DNA of 63,150 bases from Syntrophobacteraceae bacterium (GCA_035624985.1 DASPQK010000307.1:1-63150); one strand, 5' to 3'; positions 19,161-22,590 are shown, counted from the stretch's first letter. Program-made: numbers and translations. The notes: a model not told the origin generated them from the letters alone.

Positions 19161-20645
19161 ATGGATGATGCGCTTCCCGGAGCTATGGAAAGACTTCTCA
19201 GGTCGGCAGTCCTTTTTGCCTGCATGGCCGCGCTTCTGCTAACCTGCCTCCGGATTCTTGGCCATGGCTACTCCCCCGTAGATGACGCCCTCAGGCATGT
19301 AGCCAAGGTGCTCTCCGGAAAGCAGTGGGGGGAAATCCTGGTCATACGACCGGAGATCGTCATGGACAGCCATCCGGGGTGGCATTTTATCCTGAAACTG
19401 GCCACCAGAATCACGGGGCCCGATCCCACGCTGCTGCTCGATTTTTCCGTGCTGTTCCTCTTTCTCCTTTTTGTCCTTACGCCGCTCTTTTTCTTCGACC
19501 GTCCCGAGGCCTGGATTCTATCACTGCTTGCATTTTCTCTGTTTTCCTTTGGGACTATCTGTCGTCTTTTCTTCGGAAGACCTTTCGTCTTCAGCATGCT
19601 TCTGATCGTGCTGTTCTGTTTCCTCTGGGAAAGAATGCGCGACAAGAGAGCGCCCATCGTAGAATTGGCGCTTTTCGCCATAATATCGGCCCTGGTCACC
19701 TGGATTCACGGCGCCTGGTACTTGCTTGCCCTGCCTATATGCGCTTTAGGTTTGGCCCGGCAGTGGAGGGTGTTGGCCCTTATGGCGGCGGCGGCGGCGG
19801 CGGGCATACTCCTTGGGGCCTCTCTTACCGGCAGACCCCTGACTCTGCTGAACCAGATGATCTACCAGGCCGCGCTTGCCGTGGGGCATCATGATTTCCA
19901 AAGACAGCTCGTCTCCGAACTGCAGCCTTTTGACGGTAGCCCGATCTCGATTGTCGTGATTGCGGCCATGTTGATATGGAGGTGTGCGCGGGGGCAATGG
20001 AACAAAGAGTGTGTCGATAACCCGGTATTCATCCTCGGCGTTCTGGGCTGGGCGCTGGGGCTTGTGGCCGTGCGCCTGTGGTCGGACTGGGGCTGGCCCG
20101 CGCTCGCTTTCTGGACGGCCAGGGAGATCGAGGTCGTGCTGAAAAAATATTTGGGCGAATTCGATCCGCGCAGGCTTGTGGTGACTGCTGCGGCCTGCCT
20201 GGTCCTTTTCCTGGCGCTTAGTAATGACCACGGGAGCCGTTGGACAGGCATGCTCGGCGTCCAATGGCCGCAGATGACAAACGCAGAGCACAAGAAATGG
20301 CTTCCCGAACGGGAAGGGATCCTCTACAGCGATGGGATGGATGTCTTCTACTCTATATTTTACAACAATCCGCACGGAGACTGGAAATACGTCCTTGGCT
20401 TCGAACCAGTATGGATGCCTGAAGATGACCTGAAAATCTATCGTCATATCCAGCTCACCAGGGGCAAGCCCGAGAGCTACGCTCCATGGATCGGGAAGAT
20501 GACCGAAAAGGACAGGCTGGTCCTGGTCCGGCAGGAACAGCCGAAAGTAGAGGGTCTGGAGTGGCACGAGGTAACGCTGACGGTCTGGAGCGGCAGACGC
20601 GTGGCTGGAGCGCAGCAGCCTGCAAAGGATGAAGTCTTGGAATAA
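19161..20645 (+). CDS. Polytopic membrane protein, putative GT-C-fold glycosyltransferase (start uncertain: 19080, 19161 or 19185)
   Basis: At least 10 hydrophobic helices. An acidic VDD motif in the first extracytoplasmic loop (GHGYSPVDDALRHV). ~140-aa soluble C-terminal domain. Flanked by pilA and a polyprenyl-phosphate GT2. Confidence 0.45.
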   Translation: MDDALPGAMERLLRSAVLFACMAALLLTCLRILGHGYSPVDDALRHVAKVLSGKQWGEILVIRPEIVMDSHPGWHFILKLATRITGPDPTLLLDFSVLFLFLLFVLTPLFFFDRPEAWILSLLAFSLFSFGTICRLFFGRPFVFSMLLIVLFCFLWERMRDKRAPIVELALFAIISALVTWIHGAWYLLALPICALGLARQWRVLALMAAAAAAGILLGASLTGRPLTLLNQMIYQAALAVGHHDFQRQLVSELQPFDGSPISIVVIAAMLIWRCARGQWNKECVDNPVFILGVLGWALGLVAVRLWSDWGWPALAFWTAREIEVVLKKYLGEFDPRRLVVTAAACLVLFLALSNDHGSRWTGMLGVQWPQMTNAEHKKWLPEREGILYSDGMDVFYSIFYNNPHGDWKYVLGFEPVWMPEDDLKIYRHIQLTRGKPESYAPWIGKMTEKDRLVLVRQEQPKVEGLEWHEVTLTVWSGRRVAGAQQPAKDEVLE

Positions 20646-20766
20646 ATTATGCAACCGTCTCGAAACGTTCCGATGGGTTGCAGTCCGCCCAACCCCGTTC
20701 CACCCATCCTGCGGGTTCTGCGGGTTTTGATGGTTGTCTTTGGGACTGTTAAGATCGAGGAAAGGA

Positions 20767-21825
20767 ATGGAAGGAGATATTTCCAGCCACACAACGGACC
20801 GAGATGTCAAAATTCTTCTCATGCGCCACTCCGTGGACCCGAACGAGTTGGGCTATTCATCCGGAGCTGTCGGCGTACAGAAAACAGAGGATAAAAAAGT
20901 AGCCGTCATACTGCCGGCATATAATGAAGCACAGACAATCGGCTCAACGATCCGCGCCCTTCATTCCGCAATTCCCATGGCGGAATTGTGGGTTGTAAAC
21001 AATAATTCGAGCGACGATACGGAAGACATTGCGCGCAAACTGCTTGAGGAGTTGAGCGCAAAAGGCGGAGTGCTTGCAGAGCCCAGGCAGGGCAAAGGTA
21101 ATGCGGTGCGAAGAGCGTTCCATGAGATCGATGCAGACGTTTATGTGCTGATAGACGCAGATTTTACTTACCCGGCCTGGAGGATTGGAGACCTGATTCA
21201 GCCGATAATCGATGGCAGAGCCGACATGGTGGTGGGGGATCGTCACACGGGAGGATACTACAGGCGAGAAAACAGGCGACCGATGCACAATTACGGCAAT
21301 CGAATGGTGCAATCTCTTGTCAACAGGCTCTTCGGCGCCTCCCTGGTTGACATCATGTCAGGATATCGCGCTTTTAACCGCATGTTCGTCAAGAACTACC
21401 CGATACTGGTCGAAGGCTTCGAGATAGAGACCGACATGACCCTTCATGCGCTTGACAAGAAATTTAGAATCGTCGAAATCCCCATCGAATATAGAGACAG
21501 GCCGACGGGCAGCTTTTCGAAGTTAAATACCCTCAAGGATGGCGCCAGGGTGATCTCTGCAATTGTTCGCATACTGCGGCACTACCGTCCGCTTGCCTTC
21601 TTCGGAGGGATGGGAGTGCTTCTGGCATCTTTAGGGCTGCTCGCCGCAGCGCCCGTGTTCGATGACTGGGTTCGCAGCCATTACATCTATCACGTGCCCC
21701 TTGCAATACTTGCTACCGGAATTGAAATTGTGGCATTGCTGATGTTCGCTATCGGTCTCGTGCTCGATTCGATTGCCGATCAGGGCAAGCGCAATTTCGA
21801 GCGTGAATTGTTGCGTAGGTTTTGA
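20767..21825 (+). CDS. Family-2 glycosyltransferase, polyprenyl-phosphate sugar synthase type (GtrB/ArnC/DPM1-like)
   Basis: VAVILPAYNEAQTI, NNNSSDDT, DAD motif (LIDADFTY), plus two C-terminal TM helices (FFGGMGVLLASLGLL; LAILATGIEIVALLMFAIGLVL), as in GtrB and ArnC. Confidence 0.8.
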   Translation: MEGDISSHTTDRDVKILLMRHSVDPNELGYSSGAVGVQKTEDKKVAVILPAYNEAQTIGSTIRALHSAIPMAELWVVNNNSSDDTEDIARKLLEELSAKGGVLAEPRQGKGNAVRRAFHEIDADVYVLIDADFTYPAWRIGDLIQPIIDGRADMVVGDRHTGGYYRRENRRPMHNYGNRMVQSLVNRLFGASLVDIMSGYRAFNRMFVKNYPILVEGFEIETDMTLHALDKKFRIVEIPIEYRDRPTGSFSKLNTLKDGARVISAIVRILRHYRPLAFFGGMGVLLASLGLLAAAPVFDDWVRSHYIYHVPLAILATGIEIVALLMFAIGLVLDSIADQGKRNFERELLRRF

Positions 21826-21888
21826 GTGCTCCTTCTAACTTTGGTTATAGCCTGCAAAAACTTTGGTACTGGGCTCGAGTGAGTAGAA

Positions 21889-22590
21889 ATGAACCGCTAT
21901 ACCGGTACGGATAATCTCGAAATAATGGCGGAGGCGCTCAATTATAATGCTTTTATACTGTCGCTGATTCGAAGGCAGTTAAGGTCCGGGATGAGGGTGC
22001 TGGACATCGGCAGTGGAATTGGCACTTTTGCAAAAACATTACATGATGAGGGGTACGAGGTGACGTGTTTGGAACCCGACGCGAATCATGCAGCCCATCT
22101 CGAATTAAACGGACTTTGTGTAAAGCGCAGCTTAGCGGATATAGAGGGATCACGCTTCGACTTTATTTATGCGCTAAACGTCCTGGAGCACATTGAAGAT
22201 GACCATGATGCGCTGACAGAATGGCACCGACTGCTCAAGCCTGGCGGCAGGCTGCTGATCTACGTACCTGCTTTCCACCTGTTATATTCCAGCATGGACA
22301 AGAAAGTAGGTCATTACCGAAGGTACAAATGTAATGACTTGATCAATCTTATAAACCGAACGGGGGGAAATCTGATTAAAGCCCGTTATGTTGACAGTTT
22401 GGGCTTTTTTGCGTCCCTTCTGTATAAATATAAGAACGATGGCACAGGGGACTTAAATCGGACTCTCTTAAAAATCTACGATAATTTCATTTTCCCATTG
22501 AGCAGAACGCTTGACTGCCTTGTCTCCCGAGTATTGGGGAAAAATGTTTATGCGATAGCGCACCGTAAGGAGGCGCATAGTCCAGGCTAA
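21889..22590 (+). CDS. Class I SAM-dependent methyltransferase
   Basis: Motif I VLDIGSGIGTFA. Post-I/II LNVLEHIEDD. LKPGGRLLIYVP. Confidence 0.8.
   Translation: MNRYTGTDNLEIMAEALNYNAFILSLIRRQLRSGMRVLDIGSGIGTFAKTLHDEGYEVTCLEPDANHAAHLELNGLCVKRSLADIEGSRFDFIYALNVLEHIEDDHDALTEWHRLLKPGGRLLIYVPAFHLLYSSMDKKVGHYRRYKCNDLINLINRTGGNLIKARYVDSLGFFASLLYKYKNDGTGDLNRTLLKIYDNFIFPLSRTLDCLVSRVLGKNVYAIAHRKEAHSPG

Follow-up and report, generated by a model that had tools for sequence, protein, structure and literature searches.

A GT-C-fold membrane protein encoded next to pilA in a peat bacterium is a candidate pilin glycosyltransferase of an undescribed family

In the 63,150-nucleotide stretch of DNA analysed here as a whole (the window), which comes from a peat bacterium of the Syntrophobacteraceae, pilA is followed by three ORFs, all on the + strand, that encode a membrane protein, a GT2 and a methyltransferase. 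We consider it somewhat more likely than not that the first of these products (19161-20645) is a GT-C-fold glycosyltransferase of an undescribed family that depends on a lipid-phosphate sugar, the likeliest substrate being the pilin encoded just upstream. The pilus is probably sugar-coated, with the pilin as the presumed acceptor, and the evidence supports the interpretation of the trio as a periplasmic pilin-glycosylation module that may transfer a methylated sugar. The features of the locus are listed below, with the type of evidence in parentheses.

18541..18942, + strand: pilA-like prepilin, 133 aa (Pfam N_methyl 1.7e-8, TIGR02532, translation)
19063..19095, + strand: terminator-like hairpin 3' of pilA (direct sequence read; seen in the RNA fold)
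19161..20645, + strand: predicted membrane glycosyltransferase with a GT-C fold, belonging to no named family, 494 aa from ATG (AF2 model, Foldseek, conservation)
20708..20734, + strand: weak terminator-like hairpin with a T-run, separating the GT-C and GT2 genes (consensus scan)
20767..21825 (ORF open from 20734), + strand: GT2 polyprenyl-phosphate hexose synthase-like protein, 352 aa (Pfam, NCBIfam and PDB matches)
21889..22590, + strand: class I SAM-dependent methyltransferase, 233 aa, no TM helix (Pfam Methyltransf_23 2.2e-18)
22603-23076, 23073-23501 and 23508-26468, + strand: three prepilin-type minor pilin genes (N_methyl and GspH-like matches)

The trio thus lies, as the initial annotation had placed it, between pilA and the minor pilin genes, the last of which encodes a fusion protein of 986 aa that contains an internal CFI-box-CTERM domain (CFI_box_CTERM 2.6e-18). 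The translated PilA begins with the leader MKMKKRIRNRKG, followed by FTLIEI, and its globular part is rich in S, T, N and A and almost devoid of charged residues. The genome has 15 prepilin-like ORFs including this one, and pilin-like ORFs occur across it at a background of 3.2 per Mb. The 218 nt between the pilA stop codon and the GT-C gene contain the hairpin GCCCCCAAAGC-tgc-GCTTTGGGGC, followed by TTTTCG, so that co-transcription of pilA with the downstream genes is not assured; the overall fold of this intergenic region is not more stable than those of shuffled sequences (z = -0.43). A longer frame for the membrane protein, from TTG 19080, is unlikely because this start lies within the hairpin at 19063-19095. 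The hairpin at 20708..20734 is weak evidence, given that such sites are no more common in the region than in shuffled sequences. No flippase-like ORF (GtrA, SMR or MATE) was found in or between the three genes (18.9-22.6 kb), in agreement with the initial annotation; the sole additional ORF of the trio region (20649-20894) does not encode a membrane protein, and GtrA-type domains (GtrA_DPMS_TM) occur in the genome only inside three frames of ~390 aa on three other contigs.

The layout first proposed for the membrane protein (about 500 aa, polytopic, a VDD motif in the first external loop, a soluble C-terminal domain, as in GT-C enzymes) holds up in detail: the 494 residues comprise ~11-13 hydrophobic helices followed by a soluble part of ~140 aa. 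By sequence the protein matches nothing in Pfam, NCBIfam or the PDB, and its assignment comes from an AlphaFold (AF2) model (pLDDT 92, pTM 0.90), according to which it folds as a GT-C glycosyltransferase. In a Foldseek search with this model, all matches at ranks 1-20 are GT-C enzymes (probability 0.96-1.0, TMq 0.30-0.55), the best being STT3 (8age_A, E 5.8e-5, TMq 0.55) and the others including AftA, PglB, AglB, ArnT (5ezm, TMq 0.53), ALG9, ALG3, AftB, AftD and EmbC; from rank 21 onward the matches are unrelated folds with probability <=0.1, except for the GT-C enzyme EmbB at rank 32 (0.54). At the C-terminus, ~140 aa make up a small alpha/beta domain, which lacks TPR and has no significant fold match in the PDB.

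The VDD motif corresponds to V40-D41-D42 in a 54-residue loop (35-88) that directly follows TM1. Comparison of 46 homologues shows that D42 is invariant and D41 is conserved in >=90%, and that R45, H46, D69, H71, G73, W74 and H75 of the first periplasmic loop are likewise invariant. About 60 positions, the acidic/His cluster of loop 1 among them, are invariant across phyla in sequences of 35-80% identity. A DDX motif in periplasmic loop 1 is essential in TfpW and in other GT-C enzymes (bioRxiv 10.1101/2020.04.19.049825), and D42 may, judging by its position, be the counterpart of the GT-C catalytic Asp. An invariant W307-x-D309-W310 is also seen, in the predicted helix that precedes the last TM helix.

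The view that the protein does not belong with the O-oligosaccharyltransferases PglL/PilO/TfpO was upheld: the lack of any Pfam or NCBIfam match means that it has no Wzy_C domain, Wzy_C gave no Pfam match in the 46 family members either, and no O-antigen ligase or polymerase structures are among the confident Foldseek matches. Membership of GT87 (PimE-like) was also considered and rejected, the protein having no PF09594 match and hhalign against 10 GT87 proteins from related genomes giving a probability of 8%. Weak PF09594 matches were obtained for only 3 of the 46 family members (best E 2.5e-4), and a PF09594 search of the genome found two other genes, the GT-C gene not being among them.

The identities first suggested for the other two genes are borne out by sequence matches. 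The second product is, by these criteria, a GT2 of the polyprenyl-phosphate sugar synthase type (DPM1/DPMS, GtrB, ArnC): it matches Pfam Glycos_transf_2 (PF00535, 2e-23), carries a DAD motif (LIDADF) and has two C-terminal TM helices (residues 287-305 and 325-343), and its best PDB matches are Dol-P-Man synthase (5mlz, 1.9e-14) and ArnC (1.9e-9). In NCBIfam it resembles AglJ (1.2e-65), below the curated cut-off (222 bits vs. 325), and is therefore not an AglJ equivalogue; the family of Dol-P hexose transferases is matched at 1.7e-25. Its likely start is ATG 20767, which has GAGGAAAGG just upstream and yields 352 aa, the length of the orthologue in locus L001. The third product matches Methyltransf_23, 11, 12 and 25 and contains the SAM-binding motif VLDIGSGIG; its PDB matches are generic small-molecule and lipid methyltransferases only. 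The GC content is 0.57 in the GT-C gene, 0.52 in the GT2 gene and 0.46 in the methyltransferase gene vs. 0.53 in the window.

The family to which the membrane protein belongs comprises at least 190 GTDB species from a dozen phyla. We examined 81 loci, in which 76 family genes could be scored for pilin adjacency, and found a pilin of ~105-145 residues within 1 kb of 18 of them. Pilins are 5.2 times denser within 1 kb of a family gene than at distances above 3 kb (p = 5e-7). Within the window's clade, a small pilin gene lies within 1 kb in 10 of 12 scorable relatives and stays there while the remaining neighbours vary; in locus L008 of this clade the pilin gene is 3 kb away, with genes for a PMT-type GT-C and a GT2 between. 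Pilin adjacency recurs in Omnitrophota, Kiritimatiellota, Acidobacteriota and others, whereas a clade of 44 rows, mostly Verrucomicrobiota, has one pilin-adjacent member. In seven loci (L007, L008, L011, L016, L021, L032 and L033) the pilin and GT-C genes are clustered with additional genes for glycosylation (PMT_2+TPR GT-C, PMT-type GT-C, GT4). No conserved acceptor motif was found among the pilins that adjoin family genes.

Only 3 of the 81 loci (the window, L001 and the distant L005, where the identities are 48% and 32%) have the GT2 and methyltransferase genes directly behind the GT-C gene. The survey thus bears out the association of the GT-C gene with pilA and not that of the whole trio: the pair of pilA and the GT-C gene forms the conserved core, to which the GT2 and methyltransferase genes would be a lineage-specific addition that supplies the donor. 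GT2s of the DPMS/GtrB type, with TM helices at the C-terminus, are neighbours of family members in at least 8 loci representing 5 phyla, an indirect hint that the donor for the GT-C may be linked to polyprenyl phosphate.

Among 93 genomes of the window's order, the GT-C gene is present in 4, all of which fall among the 13 with a PilMN-fusion pilus system (Fisher p = 2.4e-4). Its distribution within the genus is patchy and cassette-like (4 of the 37 genomes sampled), and the window-type GT2 occurs there in only two genomes, each time directly after the GT-C gene. A genome of the same genus (G068) has the pilus and a 49%-identical pilin, and contains none of the trio; that its pilin is similarly S/T-rich counts against the pilin as acceptor. 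Taken together with the neighbourhood conserved across phyla, the co-occurrence with the pilus system sustains the proposed link between the GT-C gene and the pilin, with the pilin as the presumed acceptor.

The scheme that we infer covers donor and acceptor, where and how the modification takes place, and what the methyltransferase does. At the cytoplasmic face, the GT2 would move a hexose from a nucleotide sugar onto polyprenyl (undecaprenyl) phosphate, and the cytoplasmic methyltransferase would possibly methylate that sugar or its precursor. The lipid-linked sugar would be flipped by a protein not encoded in the trio. In the periplasm, before or during pilus assembly, the GT-C would move the sugar to Ser or Thr (less likely Asn) of the S/T/N-rich globular part of the pilin, with D41/D42, R45, H46, D69, H71, W74 and H75 of loop 1 as the residues proposed to take part in the transfer.

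A genuine GT-C might also serve another envelope acceptor (lipid A or the LPS core, some polysaccharide, a different protein of the periplasm or outer membrane, or, in place of PilA, the S/T-rich pilins of the minor or tip type), with its place beside pilA reflecting co-regulation or a broader target range. For the window protein we regard this as unlikely, if by no means far-fetched. For about three quarters of the surveyed family genes (58 of the 76 that could be scored) there is no pilin within 1 kb, genes of the Verrucomicrobiota clade adjoin genes for an MBL-fold hydrolase and a GYF-domain membrane protein, and ArnT and the Aft/Emb enzymes, which act on lipids and glycans, are as good a match to the fold as the protein-modifying OSTs are. 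Locus L065 (Chloroflexota) has a GT2-methyltransferase fusion beside three GT-C paralogues and no pilin nearby. Together with family members in Verrucomicrobiota, it partly answers to the initial annotation's caution about trios away from pilus genes: the family as a whole is not pilin-specific and clearly has further acceptors besides pilin. In L002 and L003, moreover, the GT-C gene lies between pilA and a large tip-pilin gene. However, a small major-type pilin is the constant neighbour in the window's clade, and its adjacency is kept in L027, where there are no other pilus genes nearby, and in L007, L009 and L012, which have no minor pilins; within the order, the GT-C gene occurs only in genomes with this pilus system, and in the window's genome it is present in a single copy. 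That the protein is a non-catalytic accessory or assembly factor of the pilin, built on a retained GT-C-like scaffold, we find hardly credible: the non-enzymatic TfpX, TfpY and TfpZ do fill the same slot in Pseudomonas (PMC11841053), but ~60 positions invariant across phyla are what an active enzyme typically shows, and genes for lipid-sugar synthases are recurrent neighbours of the gene.

Two further alternatives to the preferred reading of the protein as a monophosphate-sugar-dependent pilin glycosyltransferase concern the donor. An insertion of the GT2 and methyltransferase genes for an unrelated pathway (e.g., lipid or cell-envelope modification), supplying no donor to the GT-C, appears improbable. 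It would account for the absence of both genes from most pilin-linked loci, including those of the same-genus genomes G075 and G078, for their lower GC content, for the hairpin with a T-run that separates them from the GT-C gene, and for the likeness of the methyltransferase to generic small-molecule and lipid enzymes. Against this, GtrB/DPMS-type GT2s recur beside family members, the GT2 is in the genus never found without the GT-C gene, and GT2-methyltransferase combinations accompany GT-C genes in L005 (as a pair) and L065 (as a fusion); a polyprenyl-P-sugar synthase plus a GT-C is, moreover, an established pairing (PMC11127046). An en-bloc oligosaccharyltransferase, STT3/PglB-like and N-linking at the N-X-S/T sequons of the pilin or else O-linking, would use a polyprenyl-diphosphate oligosaccharide and not a monophosphate sugar, and is in our estimate very improbable. 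STT3, PglB and AglB are the best fold matches, and there are 5 sequons in the window pilin and 2-6 in close relatives, but the TM-scores to ArnT and AftA are about equal to those for OSTs, the sequon positions are not conserved and several pilin-adjacent relatives have none, and the recurrent partner is a GT2 of the monophosphate-sugar synthase type. The STT3 Pfam domain is absent from the window protein and the family members searched, a WWDYG- or WWD-type motif is absent from residues 355-494, and the small C-terminal domain matches no OST domain.

On a broader scale, we tentatively suggest, as a possibility somewhat short of probable, a new GT-C family without a Pfam, NCBIfam, CAZy-style or PDB sequence relative, one branch of which would be a dedicated type IV pilin glycosyltransferase in anaerobes (e.g., Desulfobacterota and Omnitrophota). 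Together with further GT-C enzymes (PMT_2+TPR, PMT-type) it would often assemble pilin glycans step by step in the periplasm, drawing on polyprenyl-P-monosaccharides, the sugar here being a methylated hexose from the GT2 and the methyltransferase. If so, the patchy distribution of the GT-C gene would mirror the polymorphism of pilin alleles and accessory genes in Pseudomonas and could reflect selection by pilus-specific phages.

Among known systems, PglL/PilO (TfpO) enzymes are polytopic and glycosylate type IV pilins in the periplasm, transferring preassembled Und-PP-glycans en bloc, and tfpO directly follows pilA. The window locus shares the gene for a polytopic membrane enzyme directly 3' of pilA, whereas the fold and family differ and the window protein has no Wzy_C match. 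The Agl system of Haloferax volcanii combines a synthase of lipid-P-hexose and a SAM methyltransferase with a membrane transferase that acts on a surface-filament or S-layer protein, AglJ and AglD being Dol-P hexose synthases, AglP the methyltransferase and AglS the Dol-P-Man transferase. The same three-part combination is present here, and AglJ is the best NCBIfam match of the GT2; the window host, however, is bacterial, AglB/STT3 is absent, and the methyltransferase is not demonstrably AglP-like. Three-component periplasmic systems (GtrA/GtrB/Gtr*, ArnC/ArnEF/ArnT and, from PMC11127046, GT136) likewise combine a GT2 synthase with C-terminal TM helices and a GT-C acting outside the cytoplasm. 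The window locus differs from them in having no flippase gene and an extra methyltransferase, in a GT-C that belongs to no named family, and in an acceptor that is probably a protein (pilin) and not O antigen or lipid A. TfpW, the GT-C pilin D-arabinofuranosyltransferase of the P. aeruginosa group IV strains Pa5196 and PA7 (bioRxiv 10.1101/2020.04.19.049825), has 646 aa and a C-terminal TPR, compared with 494 aa and a 140-aa alpha/beta domain without TPR here, and uses decaprenyl-P-arabinose where the window donor is probably a hexose from a DPMS/GtrB-type GT2. An hhalign comparison of the membrane protein with 9 PMT_2+TPR proteins of TfpW-like architecture from related loci, which represent TfpW by architecture only, gave a probability of 0.5%. 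Nevertheless, in both cases the gene for a polytopic GT-C comes right after that of the major pilin, the enzyme carries an acidic motif of the DDX type in its first periplasmic loop, its lipid-monophosphate sugar donor is made by separate genes (presumed for the window protein), and the distribution among related strains is patchy and allele-like. The membrane protein is best read as a TfpW-like but apparently unrelated GT-C that would move a lipid-phosphate-linked hexose, possibly methylated, to the pilin as its presumed acceptor.

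Three open reading frames had been placed between pilA and the minor pilins by the initial annotation, which proposed that they modify a pilin on the periplasmic face, possibly with a methylated sugar. The frames and their position were confirmed by ORF reading and profile matches, with the following layout:

16289-18082, minus strand: pilM-pilN fusion gene, flanking the block (Pfam)
18541-18942, plus strand: prepilin gene pilA, 133 aa (N_methyl, 1.7e-8)
19161-20645, plus strand: predicted GT-C membrane protein, 494 aa from ATG (ORF read, fold model)
20767-21825, plus strand: GT2, 352 aa from ATG 20767 (Glycos_transf_2, 2e-23)
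21889-22590, plus strand: class I SAM methyltransferase (ORF, Pfam)
from 22603, plus strand: three prepilin-type minor pilin genes (profile matches)
26541-29640, minus strand: pilC and pilB, flanking the block (Pfam)

With the pilM-pilN fusion on one side and pilC and pilB on the other, the block lies within a type IV pilus locus. Window positions 23508-26468 encode a 986-aa prepilin-type protein that carries a second hydrophobic helix and, at residues 199-266, an internal CFI-box-CTERM domain (2.6e-18); its counterpart in G068, a genome of the same genus that lacks the GT-C gene, is split into two genes (194 and 527 aa).

After pilA we identified a strong, GC-rich, terminator-like hairpin with a T-run (~19063-19095; GCCCCCAAAGC-tgc-GCTTTGGGGC, then TTTTCG), which is probably the gene's own terminator, in which case the genes 3' of it need read-through or a separate promoter. 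In a search for pilA to GT-C read-through transcripts, the window sequence was present in two peat metagenome DNA runs only and in 0 RNA runs. The hairpin overlaps TTG 19080, the start of the longest GT-C frame; with that frame starting inside the hairpin, the best reading of the gene start is ATG 19161. The GT2 gene probably starts at ATG 20767, which is preceded by GAGGAAAGG and gives a length (352 aa) equal to that of the orthologue in L001, one of the loci (L numbers) fetched around relatives of the GT-C gene. GC content drops along the block, from 0.57 in the GT-C gene to 0.52 in the GT2 gene and 0.46 in the methyltransferase gene (window, 0.53), and the low value of the last is consistent with later acquisition of the GT2-methyltransferase pair.

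The membrane protein had 0 matches in Pfam and 0 in NCBIfam, and searches of PDB sequences with the single protein and with a 46-sequence profile returned nothing even at E = 10. Among the candidates scored, 363 were homologous at E ≤ 1e-3, none with a Pfam domain; most are annotated as 'hypothetical' and one as 'glycosyltransferase 87 family'. Forty-six aligned homologues share ~60 invariant positions, which cluster in a 54-residue loop after TM1 (P39, D42, R45, H46, D69, H71, G73, W74, H75). The VDD motif that had been noticed in the first external loop corresponds to V40-D41-D42 in this loop, D42 being invariant and D41 kept in at least 90% of the alignment. A further invariant motif, R-x-W-x-D-W-G-W (R305, W307, D309, W310; residues 305-312, window 20076-20096), belongs to a predicted helix that precedes the last TM helix and loosely recalls the WWDYG motif of oligosaccharyltransferases, although its position differs.

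The GT-C layout read from the sequence was borne out by the fold. An AlphaFold2 model built from the 46-homologue alignment (pLDDT 92, pTM 0.90) was compared with the PDB by Foldseek, and ranks 1-20 were GT-C glycosyltransferases only (probability 0.96-1.0; top query-normalised TM-scores 0.49-0.55), including yeast and human STT3, PglB, AglB, AftA, ArnT, ALG9, ALG3, AftB, AftD and EmbC. From rank 21 onwards the matches were unrelated transporters (probability ≤0.1), except for the GT-C enzyme EmbB at rank 32 (0.54). The protein is thus very probably a GT-C glycosyltransferase. DSSP assigned 12 helices to the model, and the topology, with a putatively periplasmic C-terminal domain, is provisionally assigned by likeness to GT-C enzymes. 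The C-terminal domain itself (140 residues) is a small alpha/beta unit when modelled alone (pLDDT 82); its best Foldseek match was not significant (E 0.096, probability 0.25), so that the domain yields no hint on acceptor recognition.

Several named families were considered for this protein. GT87 was rejected, with weak matches in 3 of the 46 members (best E 2.5e-4) and an hhalign probability of 8% against GT87 proteins of related genomes, and a comparison with PMT_2+TPR proteins, whose architecture is TfpW-like, found no significant likeness (hhalign probability 0.5%). The protein is not an STT3-type enzyme. A Wzy_C-type O-oligosaccharyltransferase was likewise dismissed, given that there was no Pfam match and no O-antigen ligase or Wzy-type structure among the confident fold matches, in agreement with the earlier reading that the protein is not of the PglL/PilO/TfpO type. 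By sequence, the family cannot be joined to any named GT-C family, and a literature search found no description of it.

The GT2 protein carries a DAD motif and, as first described, two C-terminal TM helices of the polyprenyl-phosphate sugar synthase type. Its closest solved relatives are the Pyrococcus Dol-P-mannose synthase (1.9e-14) and ArnC (~2e-9), and its overall profile is that expected of a polyprenyl-phosphate sugar synthase. The top NCBIfam match was the Dol-P hexose synthase AglJ (1.2e-65), but at 222 bits, below the 325-bit cut-off, it was not accepted as an AglJ equivalogue. The third gene was correctly recognised as a SAM methyltransferase: its product is a soluble class I enzyme with generic relatives only. 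No flippase-like gene was found among the ORFs of the block, again as originally noted; an 81-aa ORF at 20649-20894 was discarded as a candidate, being neither hydrophobic nor a membrane protein, and is probably spurious. GtrA-type domains in the genome are confined to three frames of ~390 aa, all on contigs other than that of the window.

When one genome per GTDB species was scanned, relatives of the GT-C gene were identified in 190 species, in phyla including Thermodesulfobacteriota, Omnitrophota, Planctomycetota, Verrucomicrobiota, Acidobacteriota, Lentisphaerota, Fibrobacterota and Chloroflexota. Cultured organisms with a family member include delta proteobacterium NaphS2, Desulfonatronum zhilinae and Syntrophus aciditrophicus. 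In the best 80 loci of these, taken with 10-kb flanks and searched for prepilins (recognised by a G-F-T-L-I-E motif and the hydrophobic helix behind it), 18 of the 76 scorable family genes had a small pilin gene (~105-145 mature residues) within 1 kb. Over all loci fetched, pilin genes were 5.2 times as dense within 1 kb of the GT-C gene as beyond 3 kb (p = 5e-7); the window's genome holds only 15 prepilin-like ORFs (3.2 per Mb). The maximum-likelihood tree places the window in a fully supported 13-member clade. Within it, the co-occurrence of the trio with pilA, which the initial annotation had proposed to survey, was confirmed for the pilA/GT-C pair, adjacent in 10 of 12 scorable members, whereas the GT2 and methyltransferase genes are missing at most of the pilin-linked loci. 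An eleventh member, delta proteobacterium NaphS2 (L008), has the gene order pilin, PMT-type GT-C, GT2 and GT-C family gene. Pilin adjacency is also seen outside this clade, both in single loci labelled Kiritimatiellota, Acidobacteriota and Bacillota and in a second clade, with Omnitrophota and Thermodesulfobacteriota loci, where the two genes are sometimes convergent. The trait needs at least seven state changes on the tree, and the pair is kept while its surroundings rearrange.

Additional glycosylation genes at several pilin-linked loci (PMT_2+TPR GT-C, PMT-type GT-C, GT4) suggest multi-step periplasmic glycosylation. In L016 (2580-11215), L021 (1-7518), L031, L032, L033 and L041, a pilin and the unnamed GT-C gene are accompanied by PMT_2+TPR GT-C genes, up to three in tandem, with a TfpW-like architecture and an N-terminal F-x-x-DD ... 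NWHPLT loop, so that some pilin loci carry three or four different GT-Cs. A literature search on pilin glycosylation in Geobacter, Syntrophus or Desulfovibrio found nothing relevant.

The trio is a unit only in part. The GT2 and methyltransferase genes come straight after the GT-C gene in the window, L001 (88% and 81% identity) and L005, which is more distant (48% and 32%), and are missing from L002, L003, L007, L009, L012 and L014; within the genus, the window-type GT2 was found in only two genomes, directly after the GT-C gene in both. In five phyla, at least eight loci have a membrane-anchored GT2 gene next to a family member. L065, from a Chloroflexota MAG (Candidatus Limnocylindrales), carries three GT-C paralogues, three membrane-anchored GT2s, a methyltransferase and a 503-aa GT2-methyltransferase fusion (770-11455) with no pilin gene in the 11.8 kb covered, and looks like a multi-sugar periplasmic glycosylation island. 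These arrangements support a functional coupling of GT2, and through it of the methyltransferase, to the GT-C family, and as judged from gene order they show this coupling to be independent of a pilin. A trio conserved away from pilus genes had been named as evidence against the pilin interpretation: L065 does combine GT-C, GT2 and methyltransferase genes without a pilin. The window's own clade is mostly pilin-linked.

In a 44-member, mostly Verrucomicrobiota clade, we found one pilin-adjacent case. There (L051, L057, L066, L067, L072, L075, L076 and L079, ~8400-11450) the GT-C gene is often tandemly duplicated, with a conserved MBL-fold (Lactamase_B_2) gene upstream and genes for GYF_2-domain membrane proteins downstream, and no pilin or glycosylation gene adjoins it. 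Comparison of the adjacent pilins revealed no conserved acceptor motif or sequon (S/T 14-29%; 0-6 sequons, positions not kept), and the pilin of G068, where the GT-C gene is missing, is S/T-rich as well. The Verrucomicrobiota clade, the pilin-less L065 and the missing common acceptor motif or sequon together disfavour a pilin-only role.

Of 93 genomes of the window's order, four carry the GT-C gene, all in the window's genus and all among the 13 with the PilM-PilN fusion pilus system (Fisher p = 2.4e-4), although the kinship of the four implies fewer than four independent events. In G068 the pilus is present (pilin 49% identical), pilA abuts the minor pilin cluster and 0 of the 3 trio genes occur, so the block comes and goes at the pilA locus like a cassette, much as the pilin accessory genes of P. 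aeruginosa do. The fused system itself (window 16289-18082) is patchy: 13 of the 93 genomes from the order have it, and 5 of the 39 from the genus. A separate classical pilin gene set lies on two other contigs of the window's genome (C64, C151), so that this genome has genes for at least two type IV filament systems.

Taken together, the locus encodes a pilin-linked GT-C glycosyltransferase whose family is undescribed, next to a lineage-specific gene pair that presumably makes its donor, and the original interpretation is supported as far as computation reaches. The fold, the family assignments, the synteny and the co-occurrence are results of the analysis; for donor, acceptor, linkage and methyltransferase role we infer a mechanism that follows GT-C/three-component systems (PMC11127046) and TfpW (bioRxiv 10.1101/2020.04.19.049825). 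GT2 would load a hexose on polyprenyl phosphate at the cytoplasmic face, where the methyltransferase might methylate that hexose or its precursor; a flippase, none being encoded at the locus, would turn the lipid-linked sugar to the periplasm, and the acidic and histidine cluster of GT-C loop 1 would pass the sugar on to the pilin's globular part, which is rich in S, T and N and almost without charge. We lean slightly towards the full model, in which PilA accepts the sugar and the GT2 product donates it.

If it is true, a second, unrelated GT-C family is tied to pilins in Desulfobacterota, Omnitrophota and other anaerobic phyla, and sugar-coated pili are far commoner than assumed, including in lineages for which a part of the pili in syntrophy and electron transfer is under discussion and surface chemistry counts. 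It would also provide a new glycosyltransferase family with a clear, testable candidate acceptor, and a compact synthase, methyltransferase and transferase set fit for reconstitution. What is known of pilin glycosylation comes mostly from PglL/TfpO-type enzymes and from one GT-C enzyme, TfpW. In Pseudomonas, this modification changes the chemistry of the pilus surface and blocks phages specific to pili (bioRxiv 10.1101/150227). TfpW, the closest functional analogue of the window protein, is likewise encoded directly after pilA, depends on a periplasmic loop-1 DDX motif and uses a lipid-monophosphate sugar donor (bioRxiv 10.1101/2020.04.19.049825). However, the window protein has no TPR domain, which TfpW does have; it is also shorter by 150 residues and has no profile likeness to PMT_2+TPR proteins, and we therefore do not file it under the TfpW family; the result extends a known logic and is no new principle.
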